This document shows positions 5,490-60,164 of a stretch of 64,000 nucleotides of DNA, piece after piece. The translations under genes and the position numbers were made by a program. Within the stretch, counting starts at the first letter, position 1; each line of letters begins with the position of its first letter. The notes below the pieces were generated by a model. The model was not told the origin of the DNA. It made no database searches and saw nothing but the letters and a program-made list of their open reading frames with translations. Source of the stretch: Octopus vulgaris (lineage: Eukaryota); assembly GCA_951406725.2 (NCBI GenBank), contig OX597823.1:88412001-88476000 (forward strand), read 5' to 3'.

Positions 5490-5720
5490 CGGAGAAAATA
5501 CCTTGCGGACAAAATGCCGAACAAAACACTTGATAAAATGCCTTGCAGAATCTCTTCTGCCTGTATATTTTGATTTCAAATCTCGCCGAGTTCCATCCTT
5601 TCGGGGTCGATTAAATAAGTACCAGTAACGCACTGGGGTCGATATAATCAACTTAATCCGTTTGGCTGTCCTTGTTTGTCCCCTCTATGCTTAGCCCCTT
5701 GTGAGTAATAAAGAAATAGA
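5490..5720 (+). mobile_element. tRNA-derived SINE family A, decayed
   Basis: catcctttcggggtcgattaaataagtaccag..gcactggggtcgat..tgtccttgtttgtcccctct..taataaagaaata shared with 28671, 44532 and 57657. Confidence 0.75.
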
Positions 5721-7282
5721 TATTTAGAAGTTAATATGAGTAGAATCTTAACATAGAAAAAATCAGAATGAGATTAATATTTTATAGCCAAAATTGCTTT
5801 GCTTATACTGATAACAACATTAAAGAACGTATTAATAATGTAACGTCTGACAGTAGCTTAATTCTGTAGACAAAAACTTAATTGATATTAAAATACATTA
5901 TAAATACTTACTCTGGTAAATACATACTCTGCAATAAGAAGCCAAATAATTTCTTCTTCAGAATCTCCTCAGCAATATCCTTGTTATTGCTTAAATTCGG
6001 TGACTTAAAAATCTGGTATTTACTATGTAATGTGAGCGTAACCTTAACATAGGAAAATTCACGTGTTGCATATTTCTCTTTTGAGGTCGATATCAGCACA
6101 TTCCAAACATGTAGCTACATAGTTGCAGTAAGTACATCGCAATCAGAAACACTTCTGACAAGTTTTGTACATCGCAAAATAATTGCCTCTGAGAATATCA
6201 CAATGTTCTGATGCACTCAGAACCTGCATTCCATTCTCGTCACGTTTTCGTCGGTTGTTGAAGCTTTAAGTAATGTTTCGATTGTGTAATGTAATTTTCT
6301 GTGGTTTTCTCATTGAGATAACTGTATACATACACACATTTTCGTCTAACGAAGTCATGTAGAGAATACATAATGGTTATCTGCATTCCGAAAGATATGA
6401 TTTCTAGGATTATTAAAACGGAAATTTAAGTGATTGCGAGATATAATGTGAGGAAACTTTGATTCCTAACGCGATAAACATTGACTTAATTATAATGGTG
6501 AAATTACATATTGTGCAGCTTGAGTTGTGATAAGTTTAGCTTGAATATTCATCAACTATCATTTCAATATGCTTTCCTTTTATTGCAACGGCAAATGGAA
6601 TTCTAACCTTGCAGATTAGTATTTCCTATGACAATGTTTACGGATAATCCCGACACAGCATTGCCGTATGGCCTCTCGACAGCGTAAACTTAAAATACAC
6701 CGACGTTACCTTTGACTCTCGCTCATATTGTATGGACGGCTTATTGACTGATATTATAATGGGCACGATTCATAAGCGCGTATTATTTCATACAAATGTG
6801 ATTTTCCTTTTTTTTTTTTTGTTCACTTCAAACATCTCGAAATTACATTTTTTTCTACCGAGAGACCAGAATTAACTTGATCGGTCATACACTAGGTGCC
6901 TTTCTGTCGACTACTGTACTATACGCGATGAACTGCTGATGTGTGGAATAATTATTGATTTTTACCTTGTCACAGCACATGGCATAAAGTTTTAATCGAT
7001 AACATAATCAATTAAATCGATACAGTTTATAGCAGGCAGCTAATTACATAAACGGAACATAACCAATATCAGCGCGATTTTCAAAATTCTTAATTAGTGA
7101 TAATACAAAAGACATCATGTAAATAATATATTGTGCTGATAAATATAAATAAGATAAAAGTTTGAGATAGGTTTCTATAAGAATTTCGATTTTCCAACAG
7201 AAAACATGTCAGAGGAAAGACACGAAGTGTATAAAAGAGAAAAATCCAAACTGTAGATGAATTAATATGTCAAATCAAGATA

Positions 7283-20316: not shown

Positions 20317-20810
20317 CAGATGGGTGGATGGATGGATAGATAGACAGACAGGTAGTTAGCTAGCTAACTATAAAGACAGACAGACAGACAGACCGGCAGG
20401 CAGGCAGTCAGGCAGGCAGCCAGGCAGGCAGGCAGGCAGGCAGACAGGCAGACAGACATACAGACAGACAGACAGACAAACATACAGACAGATTGATTGA
20501 TTGATTGATTGATTGATAGACAGACATACAGACATATTGATTGAACCCAAGGAATATTGTTTATGAATCTGCCACTACTTTAATTTGCCACTTTTTTATG
20601 AATTTGCCATTACTTCAAGGGGCTGTTTCTGCTTTCATTTCCAACCATTTTTGCCGTTAGCTTTGTTGATACTACGATTAGGAAGCACCACTTCCTTTCC
20701 TTCACATATTTATCTGGTCTATTGAGCACTAACTGTCTTTGTGTGCCCGATACATTAGTGTATTTCTTTTATCCGTCTCTGATAACGGTTTCGGTATATG
20801 TTAATCACAT

Positions 20811-22856
20811 ATGCTTAGGTTGGTGTTTCCATTACCTGAGCAATTACTAATGTATAATATTCACAAATATCTCATAGCGGTACACACAAACACATACCTG
20901 TGTGTGTATACGAAGATCTATAAGTATATGCATGAAATCCCACCCCTATATGGCCTTCGCAAAGATCACAAGAGCCACACGGACAATATACTTGGGCCAC
21001 CCACCCGACCCGTTTGTGGTGCCAACAATGCAAACAACCACAAAATATCATACTTTCTCTCACAATTCCTACGACCGTTAATAGAACTATCTGCAGATGT
21101 ATGTGACAGTACTGAGGACCTCCTTAGCAGGATCCGCGAATGCAACAACACGTGTGACCTCAAGAACCACATCGTGGGTAGCATGGATGTGGTATCACTA
21201 TACCCCTCCATCGATATAGACTTTGCTGTCGATAAATGTATAGAAATAGTTAGTGAGAGTGGTATGATATTTAAGAATGTGGATGTATATGAACTAGGGC
21301 TCTTCCTGGCCCTGACGTGTACCAATGAATACCTGTCGCGCAATAACCTTCTATATGCTTGTCCCACCCGTAACAAACGCGGTAGACCACCTACCATTAC
21401 CTCGGCTTACAGGAAGACTCACTGTGAGCGTTGGCAGGGATGGACAAAGCCGGACTACCCACCCTCAAGTGCACACGATATTAGAACCACCATCGCACAT
21501 GCCATCGGTGTCAGCCTGAGATTTACGCTAAAAACACATATTTTTAAATTTGACAACAAACTGTATAAGCAAACGAAAGGCGGTGCTATTGGAGTGGGGA
21601 TCGCCGGTGACGTTGCTAACCTCTTCATGGTATGGTGGGACAAGCGTCTTAAACAGTGCCTAGCAAACCGTAACATCCACTTGGCTATGTACTCTCGTTA
21701 CGTCGACGACATTAACCTTGTTGTGAAATGTAATACAGACACAGTTATGGGCCCTCTACCAAGTGAAGAACAGGTGATGACATCTATACAACACATAGCT
21801 GACTCTATCCACAGCAGTATAAAACTTACCATAGACTACCCCTCTAGACACCCCAGTAAACGATTACCCGTCCTAGATACTGAGCTATGGATGGAAGACG
21901 CTATAGTTAATGGTACCATTAAACCATGTATACTCCACTCACACTATCAGAAACCGATGGCTAATCCACTAGTAATCCGTAGTGACTCAGCTGTGTCGGA
22001 TACTGCCAAACTCAACATCCTAGTGGCAGACTTAGTTAGAGTAATGAGGAATGTATCACCACTATGCCAACCACAAGAACGACAACAACACATCCAGCAC
22101 TACATATTCCGAATGCAACGTTCCGGATACACACAAGACGATAGAGTCAGGGTGTACAAAGGAGCGAAAGCTAGATTCGAACGCATTCTAGGGAACGACG
22201 AAAACGGTATATGCCCCCTGTACCGCAACAAGTTCTGGAATAGGTTAGAGAGGGACACCAACAAAAAGATGAGAAACGTTACTTGGTACGATAACAGGAG
22301 ATTTCACGGAGTGATGTTCGTTGACGCCACACCTATGAACGAGCTAAGTAAGGCATTCAAGAAAGTCCTGCGCACTACGGGCCTAAAAGTTAAAGTTGTA
22401 GAAAAGACAGGTAGGACTATCAAATCGGCATTATGCAGATCATATCCATTTGATAGAATCACCTGTCAGAGTAATTGTGCAGTGTGTTCGACAAATCCAC
22501 ACGTAAATTGTAATACCAAGGGCACTGTATACCAGATTAAGTGCCAGGAGGGAGCTTGCGCGGCTAACCCGGAGTCATACATAGGTGAGACCTCTAGAAG
22601 CATCAATGATAGGTTCAAAGAACACCTGGACAACTACATTGAAAGGAAGCCAAACTCCATCTTCTACCAACATGCTGTAGACTGCCACAAGGGATCCTTA
22701 GGGGAGCTTAAGTTGAACATCCTATCTACACATCCCACCGATGCAATGTTGAGACAGGTCACAGAAGCTGTTTGTATACAAGAATACAAACCTACTCTCA
22801 ACCGAAAGTCCGAATGGAATAACATCCAGATCCCATTCAGAAGGACTATTCTATAA
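20811..22856 (+). CDS. Penelope-like retroelement ORF: reverse transcriptase plus GIY-YIG endonuclease, 5'-truncated (homology starts ~20928); Naiad-like
   Basis: LYGLRKDHK, PTRPV, SMDVVSLYPSI, QTKGGAIG, RYVDD, LPVLD, Cys linker CQSNCAVC..C, TVYQIKC..YIGETSRS..RFKEH, EAVCI..LNRK; no internal stops. Confidence 0.92.
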   Translation: MLRLVFPLPEQLLMYNIHKYLIAVHTNTYLCVYTKIYKYMHEIPPLYGLRKDHKSHTDNILGPPTRPVCGANNANNHKISYFLSQFLRPLIELSADVCDSTEDLLSRIRECNNTCDLKNHIVGSMDVVSLYPSIDIDFAVDKCIEIVSESGMIFKNVDVYELGLFLALTCTNEYLSRNNLLYACPTRNKRGRPPTITSAYRKTHCERWQGWTKPDYPPSSAHDIRTTIAHAIGVSLRFTLKTHIFKFDNKLYKQTKGGAIGVGIAGDVANLFMVWWDKRLKQCLANRNIHLAMYSRYVDDINLVVKCNTDTVMGPLPSEEQVMTSIQHIADSIHSSIKLTIDYPSRHPSKRLPVLDTELWMEDAIVNGTIKPCILHSHYQKPMANPLVIRSDSAVSDTAKLNILVADLVRVMRNVSPLCQPQERQQHIQHYIFRMQRSGYTQDDRVRVYKGAKARFERILGNDENGICPLYRNKFWNRLERDTNKKMRNVTWYDNRRFHGVMFVDATPMNELSKAFKKVLRTTGLKVKVVEKTGRTIKSALCRSYPFDRITCQSNCAVCSTNPHVNCNTKGTVYQIKCQEGACAANPESYIGETSRSINDRFKEHLDNYIERKPNSIFYQHAVDCHKGSLGELKLNILSTHPTDAMLRQVTEAVCIQEYKPTLNRKSEWNNIQIPFRRTIL

Positions 22857-28670: not shown

Positions 28671-29083
28671 GTGGCGAGCTAGCAGAATCGTTAACACATC
28701 GGTCGAAATGCTTAGCGGTATTTCGGCTGCCTTACGTTGTGAGTTCAAATTCCGCCGAGGTCGACTTTGCCTTTCATCCTTTCGGGGTCGATAAATTAAG
28801 TACCAGTTACGCACTGGAGTCGATGTAATCGACTTAATACCTATGTATGTCCTTGTTTGTCCCCTCTCTGTTTAGCACCTTGTGGGTAATAAAGAAATAG
28901 GTATTTCGGCTGCCGTTACGTTGTGAGTTCAAATTCCGCCGAGGTCGACTTTGCCTTTCATCCTTTCGGGGTCGATAAATTAAGGACCAGTTACGCACTG
29001 GGGTCGATGTAATCGACTTAATACCTATGTCTGTCCATGTTTGTCCCCTTTATGATTAGCCCCTTCTGGGTAGTAAAGAAATA
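28671..29083 (+). mobile_element. SINE family A, full copy plus tandem 5'-truncated second copy
   Basis: ggcgagctagcagaa A-box region, gagttcaaattcc B-box; body repeated from 28900. Confidence 0.85.
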
Positions 29084-29697
29084 GGTAGTTGTTAACGCTG
29101 ATGGTGTTCAATGTTGATAAACATTTATGTTATAGTGATATTTGATAAGTTTAAAATATTACGTATTAGCTATCACCATCGCTATCTCTGGGTGTACCGT
29201 ACTATTCTAAAGCCAAACACATCGAGATCAAGGATGAGAAACAGGCATTCTCTGCTTATTAAGCCGAATCCGCGTCGCTAAATTTAAATGGGTAAGCTTT
29301 ATTTTTGGAAGAAAATCACCTATTCAAATTTAGTTTATATCTACCGGAAGAAAATTAATGTTACTCTAATTTGTTTATCGTGTTCTGTAAATAACTATGT
29401 AAACATTATTTACAAATGAAGTGTATTTCAAAAGAAATGGAGCGGTATAAATGACCAAGGCATAGATGCAAATTAAATTGTGTTGTTGCAGCTCTAAGTA
29501 TTGTTAGTTTATAAACAGAATCCAGTTAACGAAATATACGTATTTTAAATGGCTTCCATGATCTGCTTCGGTATACATTCTTAGTACACACATCCATATA
29601 TCATATTCCACACTTTAATTATTGAACAGTATCTGCTTGAGCTCGTTCTTAAGAAAACTAAAATTCATGTAGCAGCTATCATCTATGTTACTTATAG

Positions 29698-30781: not shown

Positions 30782-30819
30782 GTGTGTGTGTGTGTGTGTG
30801 TGTATATACACAATAACAG

Positions 30820-30871
<52 letters not shown>

Positions 30872-30891
30872 GTATATATACACAATAACAG

Positions 30892-30922
<31 letters not shown>

Positions 30923-30950
30923 CTATATATGTTACATTACTCGGTAGTCA

Positions 30951-31013
30951 AGATAAAACTCTGAGTTTCAGATGCCGAAGTGGAAATCCACAACACCATC
31001 TCTTCGGTTATCT
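30951..31013 (-). ncRNA. Type I hammerhead ribozyme variant (family b), mirror copy
   Basis: Reverse complement of 31073-31135. Confidence 0.6.
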
Positions 31014-31072
31014 GGCTATTTGAAAACGTTATGAAAAAATACCGTATTTTTTCATAACGTTTTCAAATAGCC

Positions 31073-31135
31073 AGATAACCGAAGAGATGGTGTTGTGGAT
31101 TTCCACTTCGGCATCTGAAACTCAGAGTTTTATCT
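31073..31135 (+). ncRNA. Type I hammerhead ribozyme variant (family b)
   Basis: agataa-CCGAAGA-gatg...catc-t-GAAA-ctc-a-gag-TT-ttatct: stems I-III present, U4C core variant, GUU cleavage triplet. Confidence 0.6.
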
Positions 31136-31231
31136 TGACTACCGAGTAATGTAACATATTGTATAGATAAATTTCCTCTATTTACATAATATTGAGGTCT
31201 CTTTCTTTCTTTTGTTATCTTACCGTTTTAT

Positions 31232-31272
<41 letters not shown>

Positions 31273-31355
31273 GGTCCCGGGTTGATTCGGGGCTAACCAC
31301 AGTAAATAAGGTACTCAATACATAGTAGAGTAAAATTAATTTATTATATAGAAGG

Positions 31356-31406
31356 AGCTTCTACAGGACTAGAACTGTTTCATTCAAGAGAAATCTTCAG
31401 GAAGCT
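31356..31406 (-). ncRNA. Type I hammerhead ribozyme (family a)
   Basis: Reverse complement of 38401-38451. Confidence 0.88.
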
Positions 31407-32001
31407 AGTTAACAAGAATTGTATTGGCATTTATACATTTAGGCAGGTTTAAAGGGGTGTTGGTGGGGGACTTTTTGGGGGTAGGCATAGCGCAAAATAT
31501 CATACTTGGGGGAGTGGTCAAGGAGTCAGTGTTAAATTAGATAGAAGAATAAATAAAAAATTTAAAAATATATAAAAAAATATATAAAAATATATATAAA
31601 AAAAGGGAATAGAGTTTTAGGTAAATAAGGAGATTCTCACTTATACCTATGCACATATGTATACATATATACACACACATACAAACATATATACATATAC
31701 ATACACACATACGTACACACACACATATACATATATATACACTTACACATACATATACATATCTACACATACACATATATGTATACATACACACACTCAC
31801 ATGCATACACGTATACACACATGTATATATACACACACGACCACACATACATATACACACAGAAAAGTATATATACACATACACACACATACTCACATAC
31901 ACGCATACACACACATATCCACACACACATATGCACACACAGCACACTAGTCCCTATATACACATATATACACATACACACACATATACACACACATACA
32001 T

Positions 32002-32049
<48 letters not shown>

Positions 32050-32513
32050 GTGTACCTATGCATACCTACACATACACACATATATATACACATACAAATA
32101 CAGACCCATTCCCTAATTTTAATTTTATTATCTTCATTTATTACTTTTGTTATCTTTGATCGCTGGTCACAAACATCTTGGCTATGACAGCCAGTCCATT
32201 TATCTGTCTACTGGAAAACAAGCACTCATTTACTCACGCACACTCTTTAGCACGTACACTCACTCATTCGTACACTCATACACATACACGCACGCACGCG
32301 TTATATTCATACATACATACATCTACATACATTCACGTATATACACATACGTACGCGTACCTACAGATTCATGTCTACACTCTTAGAAGGCTAGTCTATA
32401 CATATACACCAATGAATATAAATACACACACATACATATACACCTACATACAAATACATACATGTATATATATATATATACATATACATACATATTCACA
32501 TATATATACACAC

Positions 32514-32550
<37 letters not shown>

Positions 32551-32900
32551 CATACATATACACATTTACATATATATATATACATATACACACACATACA
32601 CATACATACATATACACACATACACATACATACGTATACATACATACATACATCCATACATACATACATTTATACACATACACACACCCACACGTATACA
32701 TATACGTACATATATATACGCACATGCATACACATACAAATACATACACATACGCATATACATATACATACATACACATACACACACACGTGCCTCCTTA
32801 TATTCATACTTACATGCATACTCAAAAAATAAATAATAAATATTAAGTATATGTACGTGCAGTTACCTATTATATAGCCGGATACATACAATATAAACTT

Positions 32901-32957
<57 letters not shown>

Positions 32958-33180
32958 TATACATATACATATATACACATATATATACACACACATATAC
33001 ACATATATATATATATATACATACTTACACACATGTACAAATACATACACACATAGATAACTCTACGTACCTACATATACATAAACACACGAGCGTACAC
33101 GTATATGTACATATACACATACACATACACACGCATATATATACATACATACATACACATACACACATATATACACACAC

Positions 33181-33233
<53 letters not shown>

Positions 33234-33480
33234 TACATATACACACACATATACATGTGTGCAAACATACATACATACTCATACACGCACACACACTTAC
33301 ATATACATATATACACACACTTACACACATATATATACATACACATATACATACATACATACATACATATATGCATACATACACACACACATATATATAT
33401 ATACATACATACACATACACATACCTATACATATATATACACACATATATACACATGCACATACTTATATCTCTACATAC

Positions 33481-35154
33481 TCGCATATTGCCACCTCCCT
33501 TAAAATCGATGACCGAACTGAACCCCTGAGGGTGAAGTCCCCACACTTCACCCTGAAAGACCACAAAGACCATTTCGAAAATAAACCGTCGGTCCGTTTG
33601 ATTAACCCAACCAAGTCTGACATCGGATCCGTCAGCAAGAAGATCCTGGACAGGATTTTACCAAAAATGCGTGAAGCTTCACCCCTTCCACTCTGGAATA
33701 GGACCTCCGAGGCAATAACCTGGTTCCCGGATTTACCTGACAAAAGCAACACCCGATTCCTACAACTGGATATCGAGGATTACTACGCCTCCATATCGGA
33801 GAGCTTGCTGATCGACGCGATTAACTTCGCCAGGAGGTCCTCCACCATCACCGAGGCCGAGCAAGAAGTGATCCTCCACGCACGTAAGACTTTTCTTTTC
33901 TATGACGGATCCCACTGGATCAACAAAAAATCTGTGACCCCCTTCGACGTCAGCATGGGTGCTAACGACTCTGCTGAAATAAGTGACCTAGTGGGCCTTT
34001 TCATCCTCCATAGGCTGAAAACCCTATTCACAGGCCTCTCCGGTGGTCTTTACCGCGATGACGGCCTTTTCGCCCTCCACAAAATAAACCCCAGGACCAC
34101 GGATGGGTTCCGGAAAAATCTTTACACCTTCTTTAAAAACTTAGGCCTTAGGATTACCTTAGAACCCAACTTAACAAAAGCTAACTTCCTTGATATCACC
34201 CTCGACTTAAAAACCTCACTTTATTACCCGTACGACAAACCAAATGAATCCCTTAGATATATAGATATTAATTCAAACCACCCCAAAAATATATTAGATA
34301 ACCTAATAAAAAGTGTCTCAATTAGAATTTCTAGCCTGTCCGCCACGGAAGATATCTTTAAGGCCGCAGCCCCCTATTACAACGAGGCCCTGGCCCGCAG
34401 TGGCTTTAAAGATAAGATTACCTATACTAGTATAGCCCCACGCCAACCCAGGAAAAATAGACGAAGACACATTAGCTGGTACACCCCCCCCTTCAACCGT
34501 GAGGTCGCTACACCTGTAGCTAAAATCTTCTTCACTCTCCTACAGAAACACTTCCCCACCCAACATAAGTACTACACTATCCTAAATAAGAACACTATTA
34601 GACTCTCCTACTCTACCACGCCCAATCTAGCCAGGAACCTAGCCAACAACAATGTGAAAAAACTTAACATATCTACTTTTTCCGAGGCCCATCCAACGTC
34701 CGATAGCAATTGCAACTGCCCTGATAAAACCACCTGCCCCCTCAACAACAACTGCCTACAGAGGGACCTAGTATATACATGCGAGGTAAGATCAGGCCCT
34801 GACGATAAAAGAAAATCCTACATCGGAATGACGTCAAACAGCTTTAAGACCCGTTGGTACGCACACACACACTCGTTCCGGCGACAGGATAAATCCAACC
34901 AAACTACCCTCGCCGCCCACATCTGGTACCTTAAAAGGAACTCCATCCCCTTCAAGACCAAGTGGAAACTACTACGGAAGGCGCGCTCGTACACAGGAGG
35001 CCATACCTGCTGTGACCTCTGCATATCGGAGAGCCTAGAGATCTTGTTCGCCAAAGGCCCTCTCCTTAACAAAATCTCAGAACACTCCCCAAATTGCATG
35101 CATAAGAAGTATGCGAACTACAAGAACTATAGACCTACCCGGCAACCAGATTGA
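33481..35154 (+). CDS. Penelope-like retroelement RT plus GIY-YIG ORF, 5'-truncated (ORF-track start 33259 is inverted microsatellite)
   Basis: TLKDHK..RLINPTKS, LDIEDYYASI, FDVSMGANDSAE, LYRDDG, NFLDITLDL, CNC..CPLNNNCL, LVYTC..YIGMT..FKTRW..H, CDLCISE..LLNK; no internal stops. Confidence 0.92.
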   Translation, partial: SHIATSLKIDDRTEPLRVKSPHFTLKDHKDHFENKPSVRLINPTKSDIGSVSKKILDRILPKMREASPLPLWNRTSEAITWFPDLPDKSNTRFLQLDIEDYYASISESLLIDAINFARRSSTITEAEQEVILHARKTFLFYDGSHWINKKSVTPFDVSMGANDSAEISDLVGLFILHRLKTLFTGLSGGLYRDDGLFALHKINPRTTDGFRKNLYTFFKNLGLRITLEPNLTKANFLDITLDLKTSLYYPYDKPNESLRYIDINSNHPKNILDNLIKSVSIRISSLSATEDIFKAAAPYYNEALARSGFKDKITYTSIAPRQPRKNRRRHISWYTPPFNREVATPVAKIFFTLLQKHFPTQHKYYTILNKNTIRLSYSTTPNLARNLANNNVKKLNISTFSEAHPTSDSNCNCPDKTTCPLNNNCLQRDLVYTCEVRSGPDDKRKSYIGMTSNSFKTRWYAHTHSFRRQDKSNQTTLAAHIWYLKRNSIPFKTKWKLLRKARSYTGGHTCCDLCISESLEILFAKGPLLNKISEHSPNCMHKKYANYKNYRPTRQPD

Positions 35155-35343
35155 TGACACCCCACCCACAAACCCCCCCCAATCCCACCGTTCCCCTAAC
35201 ACCCCCGATTACCTTTTCTCCTAAGACCTTTCAAATCTTGTATGTGCACGCTTGTATATGTGTATCGTATATATGTATAGAAATGTATGGGTATAGTAGG
35301 AATAGACGCATGTATTATGTGTGTGTGTGTGTATGTATGTAAA

Positions 35344-35374
<31 letters not shown>

Positions 35375-35771
35375 GCGTGTGTGTGTGTGTGTATATATGT
35401 ATATATGTATATATGTATATGTGTATATATGTGTGTATGCATATGTATGTGTATATGTATGTGTGTATGTATGTGTATGTATGTATAAAATATTATATAA
35501 TTAGGGCTTAGTAAAATAAATTACTTTGCCACACACTGAACTTTCTAGAAATAGCAGCCAAAACAGTTTTTTAGCCTCTTCCACTACTTAGAGAATATTT
35601 TCCCTCAGACATTATTTACTCAAAAAAATAATGGTCCTTTTACATACTGAATACTTGGTGAAATTGATTAATAACTAATTAACTTTACCCTCAATTGTTG
35701 ATATATGTATGTGTGTGTAAATATGTGTATGTATATGTATATGTACATGTATGTGTGTATGTATGTATATG

Positions 35772-35808
<37 letters not shown>

Positions 35809-36059
35809 GTATACATATATATATATGTATGTGTGTGTATATGTGTATTATGTATATATTTATAAATATATATATATATATGTATATGTATGTGTGTGTG
35901 TATATGTATATATGTGTATATATATGAGTGTACGCGAGTATGTCGATGTATATGTAGGTATGTAGAGTTATGTGTATGTGCATGTATGTGAGTGTAGATA
36001 CAAATTGTAGATGCGTATATATATGTGTGTGTATATATACATGTATATAGGTATATGTA

Positions 36060-36116
<57 letters not shown>

Positions 36117-36357
36117 GCGAGTATGTAGAGATATAAGTATGTGCATGTGTATATATGTGTGTATATATATGTATAGGTATGTGTATGTGTATGTATGTAT
36201 ATATATATATGTGTGTGTGTATGTATGCATATATGTATGTATGTATGTATGTATGTATATGTGTATGTATATATATATGTGTGTAAGTGTGTGTATATAT
36301 GTATATGTAAGTGTGTGTGCGTGTATGAGTATGTATGTATGTTTGCACACATGTATA

Positions 36358-36440
<83 letters not shown>

Positions 36441-36661
36441 GTGTGTATGTGTATGTATGTATGTATATATATGCGTGTGTATGTGTATGTGTATATGTAC
36501 ATATACGTGTACGCTCGTGTGTTTATGTATATGTAGGTACGTAGAGTTATCTATGTGTGTATGTGTTTGTACATGTGTGTAAGTATGTATATATATATAT
36601 ATATGTGTATATGTGTGTGTATATATATGTGTATATATGTATATGTATATATATGTGTGTA

Positions 36662-36714
<53 letters not shown>

Positions 36715-36965
36715 AAGTTTATATGTATGTATCCGTCTATATAATAGGTAACTGCACGTACATATACTTAATATTTATTATTATGTTTTGAGTATGCATG
36801 TATGAATAACTGCGCGTATATATATTTTATTATTTACTTATTTTTTGAGTATGCATGTAAGTATGAATATAAGGAGGCACGTGTGTGTGTGTGTATGTGT
36901 ATATGAGTATGTATGTATGTGTGTGCGTATATTTGTATATGTATGTATGTATATGTATGTGTGTG

Positions 36966-37016
<51 letters not shown>

Positions 37017-37755
37017 ATGTGTATGTATGTATATGTATATGCGTATGTGTATGTATTTGTATGTGTATGCATGCGCGTATATATATGTACGTATATGTAT
37101 ACGTGTGGGTGTGTGTATGTGTATAAATGTATGTATGTATGGATGTATGTATGTATGTATGTATGTATACGTATGTATGTGTATGTGTGTATATGTATGT
37201 ATGTGTATGTGTGTGTATATGTATATATATATATATATGTATATGTGTATATGTATGTATGTGTATATATATATATATATGTATATATATATGTATGTAT
37301 ATATATGTGAATATGTATGTACATGTATATATATATATATACATGTATGTATTTGTATGTAGGTGTATATGTATGTGTGTGTATTTATATTTATTGGTGT
37401 ATATGTATAGACTAGCCTTCTAAGAGTGTAGACATGAATCTGTAGGTACGCGTACGTATGTGTATATACGTGAATGTATGTAGATGTATGTATGTATGAA
37501 TATAACGCGTGCGTGCGTGTATGTGTATGAGTGTACGAATGAGTGAGTGTACGTGCTAAAGAGTGTGCGTGAGTAAATGAGTGCTTGTTTTCCAGTAGAC
37601 AGATAAATGGACTGGCTGTCATAGCCAAGATTTTTGTGACCAGCGATCAAAGATAACAAAAGTAATAAATGAAGATAATAAAATTAAAATTAGGGAATGG
37701 GTCTGTATTTTATGTGTATATATATGTGTGTATGTGTAGGTATGCATAGGTACAC

Positions 37756-37799
<44 letters not shown>

Positions 37800-38400
37800 A
37801 TGTATGTGTGTGTATATGTGTGTGTATGTGTATATATGTGTATATAGGGACTAGTGTGCTGTGTGTGCATATGTGTGTGTGGATATGTGTGTGTATGCGT
37901 GTATGTGAGTATGTGTGTGTATGTGTATATATATTTTTCTGTGTGTATATGTATGTGTGGTCGTGTGTGTATATATACATGTGTGTATACGTGTATGCAT
38001 GTGAGTGTGTGTATGTATACATATATGTGTATGTGTAGATGTGTATATGTATGTGTAAGTGTATATATATGTATATATATGTGTGTGTACGTATGTGTGT
38101 ATGTATATGTATATATGTTTGTATGTGTGTGTATATATGTATACATATGTGCATAGGTATAAGTGAGAATCTCCTTATTTACCTAAAACTCTATTCCCTT
38201 TTTTTATATATATTTTTATATATTTTTTTATATATATATTTTTTTTTTTTTTTTTTTTTTTTCTATCTAATTTAACACTGACTCCTTGACCACTCCCCCA
38301 AGTATGATATTTTGCGCTATGCCTACCCCCAAAAAGTCCCCCACCAACACCCCATTAAACCTGCCTAAATGTATAAATGCCAATACAATTCTTGTTAACT

Positions 38401-38451
38401 AGCTTCCTGAAGATTTCTCTTGAATGAAACAGTTCTAGTCCTGTAGAAGCT
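38401..38451 (+). ncRNA. Type I hammerhead ribozyme (family a) at the PLE 3' end
   Basis: agcttc-CTGAAGA-t-ttc-tctt-gaa-t-GAAA-cag-ttctagtc-ctg-TA-gaagct; GUA triplet, predicted cut after 38445. Confidence 0.9.
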
Positions 38452-39367
38452 CCTTCTATATAATAAATATATATATATATATATATATGCAGGTATGTAC
38501 ATGCATAATATAGATGCAGATATGTACATGTATATATATATATGCAGGTGTGTGCATGTAGAAACTCCTTACTAAATATAAAGATGTCTGTGTGTGTGTG
38601 TGTGTATTATATATGTATACCAATTCTTAGATATATGTACGTACATTACTTAAAGCAACGCATTTTACTTCACAGGAAAGATAGCTTCTTTCTAAATTTT
38701 GCTACAAGGTACTGTTATATGATTTTCTACGATAAAATGGTGAATAACTATTTTCAACTATCATGAAAATATATGTTCTTTGAACTAGAAATAGTTTTAA
38801 CATAAGAAGAATCGGAAGCCATATGCTTCACAGAAACACTTTGATACTACAGATGCATGATAAAAATCAATTCATGGGTACGAGGTTAATTCCGATACAA
38901 CTGATGTCCCTTGTACGATCCTACCAAATCCTTAGTCCCTTGTGACTTCTACCATTTACAGATCATTTTGTGAATATTATCTAGTCTTTACAATATAAGA
39001 TGAATAGGTTGTAGAGTTGAAATAAACGTAAAGGAAATGGAAAGCCTAAATCCGTAGAGGAGAGACTTATCTTGCCAAACGAAAGGTGACATACAGAAAA
39101 ATGTGCAGCACGTTTATTGTGATCCACTGTTGTGGAAATCGTAAACGTTTCGAATAGAATTTCATATCACAAATATATGGGAGACTAAGCATGGGTGCTT
39201 ATGTTTGTGTGAATGTATATATGAATAAGGAAGCATAAATGTGTTTATGTATTTTTGTCTGTGTGTCTGCATGTCACCGCATGTGCATGTATAGATTATT
39301 ATATACATATAAGAATATATAAGCATATGTCTATGTTTGCGTGCGTCTAAGCGTGTGTTTGTGTATG

Positions 39368-44531: not shown

Positions 44532-44965
44532 GGGCAGCGAGCTAGCAGAAATGTTGACACGCCGGGTGAAATGATTAGCAGTATTTCGTCTGTCTTTACG
44601 TTCTGAGTTCAAATACCGCTGACATCGCCTTTGCCTTTCATCCTATCGCGGTCGATAAATTTAGTACCAGTTACGCACTGGGGTAGATGTGATCAACTTA
44701 ATCCAATTTATCTGTCTTTGTTTGTCCCCTCTATGTTTAGCTCCTTGTGGACAATAACGAAATAAGAAATGTTGCCATGCCGGACGAAATGCTTAGCGGC
44801 ATTCTGTGCGTCTTTACATTCTGACTTCAAATTTAAACCATATCCGACGTTGTCTTTCTTCCTTACGGGAACTATAAAATAAGATCAACGCGAGCACCGG
44901 GATCGAGAAAATCAACTGAACCCCTCCCCAAAATTTCAAGTCTTACCGCTATAGTAGAAAGGATT
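44532..44965 (+). mobile_element. SINE family A followed by a decayed related copy
   Basis: ggcagcgagctagcagaa..gagttcaaatacc..gtaccagttacgcactgggg; second copy from ~44766. Confidence 0.8.
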
Positions 44966-51339: not shown

Positions 51340-51485
51340 TGTGTGTGTGTAGAGAGAGAGAGACTGACAGACAGACATGCAGTATGTTTGTATGTATGTA
51401 TATACATATTCACATATTTATACATGTATATACGCACATACACACAAATACATATACATACACATATTTACATGCGTATATATAC

Positions 51486-51806
51486 TTGGCTACGAATCGC
51501 TTCCCCACCAAGCTTATTCTCCAAACCTTTCTCCTACCGACTACCACTTTTTCAAGCAGCTTGATGATTTTCTGCGAGACAAGGAGTTCAAAAATCAAAC
51601 CGATGCTGAAAGTACATTGAAAGAGTTCATCAGCTCAAAAACTCCAGATTTTTATGCTATCAGAATAAACAAAATTGTAACTTGTTGGCAAAAACGTGTT
51701 GAATTTAATGGTACTTATTTAGATGAATAAAATTTCCGCATTATTTTAATGTATTGTGATGAATTTCATGTTTCAAAACGTTGCTTACTTTTTTCTTAGC
51801 CTGATA
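51486..51806 (+). pseudogene. Mariner transposase C-terminal fragment with 3' TIR
   Basis: LGYESLPHQAYSPNLSPTDYHFFKQLDDFL...INKIVTCWQKRVEFNGTYLD; TIR-like ttacttttttcttagcctgata then TA. Confidence 0.88.
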
Positions 51807-57656: not shown

Positions 57657-57884
57657 ACGGCGGCGAGCTGCCAGAAACGTTAGCACGCCGGTCGAAATGC
57701 GTAGCCGTATTTAGTCTGTCGTTACGTTCCGAGTTCAAATTCCGCCGAGGTCGACTTTGCCTTTAATCCTTTCAGGGTCGATAAATTAAGTACCAGTTAC
57801 GCACTGGGGTCGATCTAATCGACTTTTCCCTTTGTCCTTGTTTGTCCCCTCTGTGTTTAGCCCCTAGTGGGTAGTAAAGAAATA
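57657..57884 (+). mobile_element. SINE family A, young full-length copy with TSD-like flanks
   Basis: Near-consensus body; tataattattagtaga repeated at 57642-57657 and 57885-57900. Confidence 0.9.
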
Positions 57885-58004
57885 TATAATTATTAGTAGA
57901 TGCAGAATTAAATGGGTCGTTCAGAAGTTCACTTCGCAAATACGCACTTGAGGTTCAACCCCAGAAGGCCACAAGTAAAATAGTGAATGAAAATAACGGT
58001 TCTG

Positions 58005-58341: not shown

Positions 58342-59921
58342 GGTGGTGATGATGGCGCTTATAGTTGCATTCCTGCTGCTGCAAGCATCAGAGGCGTTGC
58401 CGGTGCACCAAAGGTTGTAGAAGAATGTGATATTAACAACGCCGTTAGAAGTAGCTAAACAATAAAATACAGAAGTCGCTGAATGATAGTATGATAAACT
58501 TGAGGGAATTTTGAAGCGGGATTTTTGATGTATCTGCCTGTGCTATATTTGAAAGCAATACACGATACGCAAAAATTATTTCTGAATATCGCAAGTTTAT
58601 ATCTTTGTGGAAAATCACGTCTACGTTCGTTTTAAAGGGGATTTTTTATGTGTGTTGCATCAAGTTAACTTCAGGATTTTGTATCACTTGGACGGTGAAG
58701 ATCAACATGAATCTCAAATATGACTTGTGTTTACTGTTTTGTAACTAATAATGACGTTAGATATTACTTTTAAATATCACTTGTACAGATTTTAGTATAA
58801 TCTTTAAACACGGAGCCTCTCCCTTGTTGCTTTAGGAGGTTCCAGCCCTCGCAAAGGAATCCCATAGCTCTTTGAAGGTTGATAAACAAATTTCTAATGT
58901 TGTAGATGAATATGTTGAAAACATAGTAAATGAAAAAACATGTGTAAATATGATGCAAAAAGAACTTACTACCAACGTACGTTTCTCGTTTGAAAAACAT
59001 GAGATTTTTCCCCAGTATATGCTGTTTGTCTTAATAGTAATGCAATTCTTATCTAAAAATAATTAAATCTAGAGGCTAAACAAAAATTTTCTCAGCATGA
59101 AAACTATCTATCTCAGGGCAGCTATTTTTGAACATACAAGATTTTCTAAATATATATCATTTAGAGATACATATTTATAACATTTCTAGATATATATCTT
59201 TATTCTATAAATATTAGATATTTTGAAGTATAGTAAGTAATATGAATGCTTTATCTTATGATATCATACATCTGGTATCATATTTGATGTATCAAAGGAT
59301 ATAATATATAGGATATCATATATCTTTGGTGATAGAGTGCAGTAAATCACTTTGAAATGAAATGAAAAATACACATCATAATACTTGTTGATCTATTATT
59401 TTTACTGAAGGCTCAGATCCGGTAGCGTTAAAAATGAAATTCCTTCGATAACGAGAAAAGGAAATGAATATCAGAAGAGATGGTTGTATCACAAAAAAAC
59501 TAGGTTTAACATTTATCTCTATAAGCCTAAGTTTGTAAACGGCATTGATATTGCTTTGGTATTCCTTTTTTTCTTTCCAAAAACATTTGCATTAAATATC
59601 TCGTGGTATATTCAACCAAGTCATGAATACTTTTTTCATCAAATGATGTTTTATCAATCGCATTATTCATCATATATTGTTGATATTCTTCAGTTTTTAT
59701 CTTTTACTAGTTACGGTCATTGGACTGCGGCCACTCTGAATAGCTTAATCGAAAAAAATCGACCCCAGTAATTATTTTAATGTGTTATACTTATTCTGTC
59801 GAACACATTAACCGAACCGCCAGGTTACAGGGACAGCAAGAGTGTAACGCCTGTTTTCAAGCAGTTCTGAGACAAATGCAATGACACACACACAAACACA
59901 TACGTATATATATATATATAT

Positions 59922-60161
59922 ATTTTATTTTATAGAAGGAGCTTCTACAGGACTAGAACTGTTTCATTCAAAAGAAATCATCAGGAAGCTAGGTGACAAG
60001 AGTAGTTTTGGCATTTATACATTTAGGCAGGTTTAAAGGGGTGGTGGTGGGGGACTTTTTGGGGGTAGGCATGGCGCAAACTATCATTCTTAGGGGAGTG
60101 GTCAAACGCTATGTATTGAGTACCTTATTTACTGTGGTTAACCCCGACTCAACCCGGGACC

Positions 60162-60164
<3 letters not shown>
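59922..60164. mobile_element. Short remnant of the 31-38 kb PLE family: inverted pLTR piece plus 3' tail
   Basis: 59931-60105 matches 31347-31521; 60109-60164 is the reverse complement of 31270-31325. Confidence 0.88.
59940..59990 (-). ncRNA. Type I hammerhead ribozyme (family a)
   Basis: Minus strand agcttc-CTGATGA-t-ttc-tttt-gaa-t-GAAA-cag-ttctagtc-ctg-TA-gaagct. Confidence 0.9.

Follow-up and report, generated by a model that had tools for sequence, protein, structure and literature searches.

What kind of element leaves a perfect palindrome with a hammerhead ribozyme motif on each strand in an animal genome, and does the motif act as a ribozyme there? The question is raised by a 308-bp locus in the 64,000-nt stretch of the Octopus vulgaris genome analyzed here (contig OX597823.1, positions 88,412,001 to 88,476,000; hereafter the window). 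A first-pass annotation had read the locus as a very young fold-back insertion, either of a second Penelope-like element (PLE) family or of a noncoding, retrozyme-like element whose ribozyme works as a dimer. We conclude that it is very probably the 3' end, cut short on its 5' side, of a longer and abundant repeat that bears a hammerhead and is likely a PLE; this end lies head-to-head with an inverted, tail-less copy of itself in (TA)n and is predicted to be inert as a ribozyme.

Anatomy of the insertion

Positions 30927-31159 form a perfect palindrome with arms of 116 nt, no mismatches, and a 1-nt spacer, the C at 31043 (Table 1). Recomputation returned the 233-bp palindrome, the 116-bp arms and the 1-nt spacer exactly as first described, and the 75-bp tail is also present at 31160-31234, with the match to the repeat family extending to 31229. 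This is the sole perfect palindrome in the 64-kb window that is not a microsatellite (arms of at least 18 nt, spacers of 0-30 nt). A perfect 116-bp repeat with an AT-rich center could plausibly extrude as a cruciform. If a 3-nt gap is allowed, the inverted arm may extend to the equivalent of 31166, near a second end of the family at 31169.

Because both flanks are (TA)n microsatellite, a target-site duplication is unreadable. Immediately left of the insertion, a motif of ~20 nt plus (TA)n forms a tandem duplicate ~70 nt apart (30803-30926); as it is found on the left side only, it is not a target-site duplication.

Table 1. Features of the palindromic insertion and of the two insertions with the same plan in the window
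Feature	Position	Strand	Basis or details
Left (TA)n target tract, broken by one C	30895-30926		Sequence
Inverted arm: tail-less, 5'-truncated copy of the family 3' end	30927-31042	-	Exact reverse complement of 31044-31159
Mirror hammerhead	30951-31013	-	Pattern; core at -31007
Junction: central C plus 2-nt overlap (GT) of both arms	31043-31045		Parent flank reads ACG immediately ahead of 31044
Direct arm: 5'-truncated 3' end (pseudo-LTR part) of the family	31044-31159	+	X7 contig match
Predicted type I hammerhead	31073-31135	+	Pattern and folding
One-sided tail; family end at about 31229-31234, then (TA)n	31160-31234	+	Contig ends
Right (TA)n target tract, common to the left end of the neighboring element	31234-31269		Sequence
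Neighboring element: 5'-truncated, Hydra-clade-like PLE	31270-38468		Frame 33505-35151; C-terminal GIY-YIG-like motif; CxCx5C linker
Third insertion: neighbor's family, short head-to-head in (TA)n	59921-60164		Inverted hammerhead part plus the tail's last 56 nt

A longer and abundant repeat family

The family was traced in public sequencing runs by 18 sampled 31-letter words of the locus. Among the 24 runs listed, 18 contain 0.83 of the words, under 13 coded organism labels; 20 contain half or more, and none contains all. No RNA runs occur among these 24 word holders. Exact 31-letter words of 31044-31229 were recorded under 13-14 coded organism labels, which may be synonyms. Such a wide spread of labels points to transfer or to several related species in which the family was recently active. 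Exact-pattern scans of metagenome contigs, viral contigs, and prokaryote genomes gave no match, as expected for an animal repeat.

Four of the 24 runs (X2, X3, X7, and X10) were aligned to 31020-31240 at a likeness of 88 and a share of 5; X21-X24, with a small share or none, were left out. All aligned data are contigs, so depth does not represent copy number. The aligned stretch attracted 1731 contigs in X2 (513 of them at 99% or above), 1805 in X3 (641 at 99% or above), 31 in X10, and 1 in X7. The X7 contig, 1296 nt in length, matches 31044-31229 at its own positions 1071-1256 with one mismatch and extends further upstream. Loose ends that run upstream from 31044 are concordant in X2, X7, and X10 (three of the four runs) and end in ACG. 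The longer contig and these concordant ends show that the window copy retains only the 3' end of a longer element and lacks the 5' part. The window contains none of three short motifs taken from the family's loose ends.

At the other side, (TA)n follows 31229 in at least 26 X2 contigs, at least 25 X3 contigs, and the single X7 contig. The second family end is marked by (TA)n behind 31169 in at least six contigs of X3. The only variants that reach 5% in the four runs are T>C at 31107, in an internal loop, and T>C at 31116. No core variant reaches 5% in any of the four runs, all of which cover the core; to judge from these contigs, CCGAAGA (U4C), singled out in the first-pass annotation, is the family norm among copies at least 88% alike, under three organism labels.

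A hammerhead with an altered core

On the + strand, the predicted hammerhead comprises a 6-bp stem I (31073-78/31130-35), the core CCGAAGA (31079-85), stem II (31086-31115), an extra U at 31116 that the earlier description lacked, GAAA (31117-31120), and stem III (31120-28), which is self-complementary (ACUCAGAGU). The cleavage triplet is GUU and the predicted cut falls after U31129. The features of the hammerhead consensus (core CUGANGA, GAAA, A15.1-U16.1, and H17) are thus all present except that U4 is C, and one extra base precedes G12. The T>C variant at 31116 alters this extra base or, in another pairing, turns a G-U pair with G31086 into G-C. No two-sided (covarying) change was found among copies, with only two variants at 5% or more to judge by. 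The core lies 150 nt ahead of the family 3' end.

As a pattern, the noncanonical hammerhead reported for each strand is upheld, with cores at +31079 and -31007. A descriptor that allows one core mismatch, fixed after the motif had been seen, matched a single one of 5000 dinucleotide-shuffled versions of arm plus tail, and across the window it matches at these two sites only. The energy of the whole-motif fold is no better than that of shuffles (z -1.11). At gathering thresholds no Rfam model matched, and even at E values up to 10 no hammerhead family was hit; the same models also miss the canonical-core hammerheads of the neighboring element, so this negative result carries little weight. Every one of the 38 matches obtained at E values up to 10 is below gathering; most are to hairpin-shaped miRNA models, and we read these as resemblance in shape.

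Folding of the isolated motif gave pair probabilities of 0.27-0.95 for stem I, 0.97-0.99 for stem II, and 0.27-0.34 for stem III as a monomer. The values for stem II bear out the extended stem first proposed. Stem III had been considered too tight for a monomer, which is correct for the form with 4 bp and a 1-nt loop, which cannot form, but not for the form with 3 bp and a 3-nt loop, which is feasible at +2.1 kcal/mol versus -7.4 kcal/mol for a two-molecule duplex. As a monomer, stem III is therefore predicted to be unstable rather than impossible.

Other elements in the window

The neighboring element carries a CxCx5C linker, given as a mark of the Hydra clade in the accessible text of PMC8557442, and lies near RT/GIY-YIG clusters in a protein atlas (scores up to 0.98). 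Its placement among Naiads was rejected, as the endonuclease motif is C-terminal. The element has inverted arms at 31339-33482 and 36327-38468 (2.1 kb, microsatellite-rich), which agree at 198 of 199 and 160 of 161 positions in two nonmicrosatellite parts. Hammerheads with the core CUGAAGA occur at -31400 and +38407, and a 69-nt tail is present on the inverted arm only. In the third insertion (59921-60164) the core is CUGAUGA, and the arms share no sequence and are joined by ~3 unmatched bases; the end of its tail-less arm falls no more than 2 nt from the corresponding end in the neighbor. The same insertion plan is thereby seen in three insertions within 64 kb: the palindrome, 31270-38468, and 59921-60164.

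Kinship of the palindrome with the two coding elements of the window was rejected by blastn, which returned self matches only (the next best was 20 nt, E 0.055), in agreement with the original statement that it is unrelated to the adjacent PLE. The second coding element is an unrelated frame (20805-22856) with RT-like and C-terminal GIY-YIG-like motifs, behind which a relaxed scan found no hammerhead. Pfam named neither frame in the window; RVT_1 appeared only at E 0.097, for frame 20805-22856. Also present are a dispersed repeat of ~200 bp, 79-94% alike (28673-29094, 44533-44764, 57659-57895, and 5536-5726, with a tandem pair at 28717-29090), and a short frame (51368-51730) that we take to resemble the end of a mariner transposase.

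Formation of the head-to-head joint

To account for the two arms, we propose that the endonuclease of the element would cut both (TA)n strands and that each cut end would prime a cDNA, one at the tail end and one at an internal start ~60-70 nt upstream. The two cDNAs would stop no more than 3 nt apart, perhaps because an RNA 5' end was common to both, and would then be joined through the 2-nt overlap. The perfect palindrome may thus represent the symmetric extreme of an ordinary insertion outcome. A PLE protein is described as cutting and extending both strands of AT-rich DNA, with two start sites that bound the tail (PMC11167929, in the text accessible to us).

The center of the palindrome bears on the joining step. 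The C at 31043 is the complement of the parent's next base upstream of 31044. The + strand at the center reads as an antisense copy that extends into the parent by three more bases (C, G, T), of which GT is shared with the direct arm. This templated center is on the cDNA strand of the tail-less arm, and the tail is on the other arm. A tail-bearing, target-primed cDNA that folded back would give G at 31043 and therefore fits the observed C poorly. The junction base thus appears to favor, weakly, two joined cDNAs over fold-back, a step that rests on one informative base and the 2-nt overlap. Joining of two cDNAs also requires a shared cause, or luck, for two independent stops 3 nt apart.

The main alternative concerns the joining step only. 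Within the same element, a folded strand (antisense template or cDNA) would be copied by self-priming, and the endonuclease would then trim one tail. Perfect symmetry and identical arms would follow directly from such copying, and an A-T pair closing a CCG loop offers a feasible fold-back at the center. Self-priming on an antisense template was proposed for the abundant head-to-head PLE repeats with junction palindromes (PMC3846280), and the tail has been ascribed to endonuclease resolution (PMC8557442). However, only a free hairpin trimmed later would agree with the C at 31043. The arms of the neighbor and of 59921-60164 cannot be mutual copies, nor can those of a second opposite-strand joint of the family (31074/31150, 2-nt overlap), found in one X10 contig at the relaxed likeness of 88; these three joints favor two cDNAs as the general route. 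We regard self-priming as possible at this locus, though unlikely. The original fold-back reading, taken to mean that a tail-bearing cDNA copies itself, thus fits the central base poorly. The PLE papers, in their accessible parts, leave the choice between self-priming and joining of two cDNAs unsettled (PMC3846280, PMC8557442, PMC4209133, PMC11167929), and no application of twin priming to PLEs was found in the portions of the twin-priming literature available.

Identity of the element

Anatomy, family, longer parent, and family-wide CCGAAGA core are direct observations. The family itself is likely Penelope-like, an assignment made from the architecture of its end and not from RT or GIY-YIG domains, and the parent could be non-autonomous. 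PLE-type features found at the locus are a type I hammerhead near the 3' end, 5' truncation, a head-to-head inverted partner, a one-sided tail, and a (TA)n target. The tail, at about 60-75 nt, is above the published 30-40 nt; that of the neighbor is 69 nt. Of the two identities offered by the first-pass annotation, we retain the first, in the form of a short insertion from another, likely Penelope-like family, and set aside the retrozyme-like element: the parent measures at least 1.25 kb and terminates in (TA)n, and the only long contig shows no tandem arrangement.

A related alternative is a noncoding, non-autonomous element, retrozyme-like or a deleted PLE derivative, copied in trans by a PLE protein. 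We consider this improbable. It is consistent with the type I hammerhead, with the fact that no reading frame of the family was seen, and with the proposal that animal retrozymes derive from PLE pseudo-LTRs (bioRxiv 10.64898/2026.07.22.740005, as far as its accessible text goes). Non-LTR retrozymes, however, are described as tandem units of 150-450 bp (PMC7229834), whereas the stretch occurs a single time in the 1296-nt X7 contig, which ends in (TA)n, and the locus is a single unit. A longer non-autonomous derivative, which falls under the same alternative, is unaffected by the tandem-unit argument.

Reality and age of the palindrome

It is very improbable that the palindrome is an assembly or library artifact, such as a fold-back chimeric read at a real solo insertion. 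Perfectly identical arms are what such an artifact would leave, no listed run contains all 18 words, and depth to the left of 31044 is absent in X2, X7, and X10. Among the contig pieces listed, none spans the center (the aligned stretch has only 23 letters to the left, and the bridging rule is 31). Yet a fold-back read would also mirror the tail, the microsatellite, and the neighbor, whereas here the mirroring ceases close to the internal end of the family, and a different sequence occupies the left flank. The central base, moreover, agrees with parent sequence not present at the locus. X3 has a depth of 62.5-64.9 over 31028-31043 and five contigs that fit two places (X2 has none), and X3 may be the assembly's own sample. 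Anatomy is a stronger argument than contig depth for a real palindrome. One of these five X3 contigs (depth 4.8) is without 31040-31044, which would give a second perfect palindrome with no spacer; it would represent an independent junction, loss of the tip, or an artifact.

The absence of mismatches in 116 sites bounds the difference between arms at 2.5%. Between the window copy and the X7 contig, 1 of 186 positions differs, and there are further differences in the last five tail bases. The insertion is probably young, as first thought, yet no more so than the neighbor on these data: identity of the arms is not special, as those of the neighbor agree at 358 of 360 nonmicrosatellite positions.

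Predicted activity at the locus

The two hammerheads are on opposite strands, and read-through RNA is therefore predicted to bury both in a 116-bp hairpin; read-through of either strand transcribes the antisense arm first. The hairpin of the whole insertion is computed at -203.2 kcal/mol versus about -13.4 for the hammerhead fold, and the hammerhead stems have a probability of 0.000 in the whole insertion. With the right arm and tail folded alone, stem I reaches 0.001-0.003, so ready folding of the sense arm into a hammerhead is not predicted either. The locus is thus predicted to be inert as a ribozyme, and the dimer action first ascribed to it is not supported here, with the motifs on opposite strands. 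The idea suits the parent family: the preference of stem III for a duplex fits dimer action in tandem parent RNA, in which the hammerhead would work as a slow dimer via its self-complementary stem III. A functional bidirectional ribozyme cassette or a selected source of hairpin RNA is scarcely credible, for although the transcript would be a perfect 116-bp hairpin and the locus scores, below gathering, on hairpin-shaped miRNA models, the hammerhead stems are predicted to vanish in the whole insertion, the two hammerheads cannot meet within one RNA, and junction depth in one of the four aligned runs gives no sign of conservation.

Implications

The locus is ordinary retroelement debris with a mildly unusual ribozyme variant. 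Its insertion architecture is already published; what is mildly new is the variant shared across the family, C4 in the core plus an additional base ahead of GAAA. A bolder reading, which we hold to be doubtful, is a PLE family widespread under several organism labels, in which fixed C4 and the extra base would deprive the predicted hammerhead of almost all or all of its cleavage activity, including that of the dimer. On this reading the fold would be retained for its value as a structural signal, spread would not require cleavage, and the many near-symmetric stubs would record, base by base, twin priming from the two RT start sites.

A successful family with fixed U4C is a natural test case of whether PLE hammerheads must cut. 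Naiads are reported to thrive without canonical hammerheads (PMC8557442), and a PLE with a dead hammerhead to insert normally in vitro (PMC11167929), both from the accessible parts of these papers. Symmetric junctions keep a strand-specific central base and so can separate self-priming from joining of two cDNAs.

Comparison with known systems

In published descriptions of PLE insertions (PMC8557442, in its accessible text), the element is 5'-truncated and lies next to an inverted, truncated copy; one end carries a tail of 30-40 bp, and the targets are (TA)n. The locus resembles insertions of endonuclease-bearing PLEs (PMC3846280, PMC8557442) in its 5' truncation, inverted truncated partner, junction palindrome, one-end tail, and (TA)n setting. 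It differs in extent, being only 308 bp yet symmetric over 116 bp, whereas the junction palindromes given in the available part of PMC3846280 are 18 and 38 bp. The tail is about 60-75 nt rather than 30-40, and the family is known here without a linked reading frame.

Metazoan PLE hammerheads occur in pairs 100-700 bp apart on opposite strands, and are described as having short palindromic stems III, dimer action, and low activity (PMC4209133, in the text accessible). The hammerhead of the locus shares with them the type I topology, a long stem II, and a short palindromic stem III suited to a dimer (PMC4209133; PMC6765202), as well as GUU-type triplets (PMC4209133 supplement) and the arrangement in opposite-strand pairs. 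The core is CCGAAGA here and CUGANGA there. Relative to the PLE consensus CUGANGAH, the family is without an extra base after A9 but has an extra U or C before GAAA. Neither a 13-nt nor a 14-nt hammerhead motif from the window has a match in the available part of the PMC8557442 supplement. No PLE hammerhead with C4 was found in the literature searched, which does not include the likeliest source, Lunse et al. (RNA Biol).

Non-LTR retrozymes (PMC7229834; bioRxiv 10.64898/2026.07.22.740005), as far as the accessible text goes, are like the locus in being noncoding, with a type I hammerhead and low GC. Unlike them, the locus is not a head-to-tail tandem, its parent is at least 1.25 kb, and it combines a PLE-type tail with an inversion.

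Hammerheads with the same core change occur elsewhere. A U4C variant of a viroid hammerhead has lowered activity in vitro and supports viroid infectivity (PMC3088659), and a CYGANGA descriptor was used for virome hammerheads (PMC13481778), according to the parts of these sources at hand. In contrast to these natural U4C hammerheads, the change is here the norm of an abundant animal repeat, under at least three organism labels.

In LINE-1 twin priming, two cDNAs primed at target ends are joined by microhomology, which results in an inversion. Here, by comparison, the cDNAs would start at two PLE sites near the 3' end, so that the arms would overlap and yield a palindrome.
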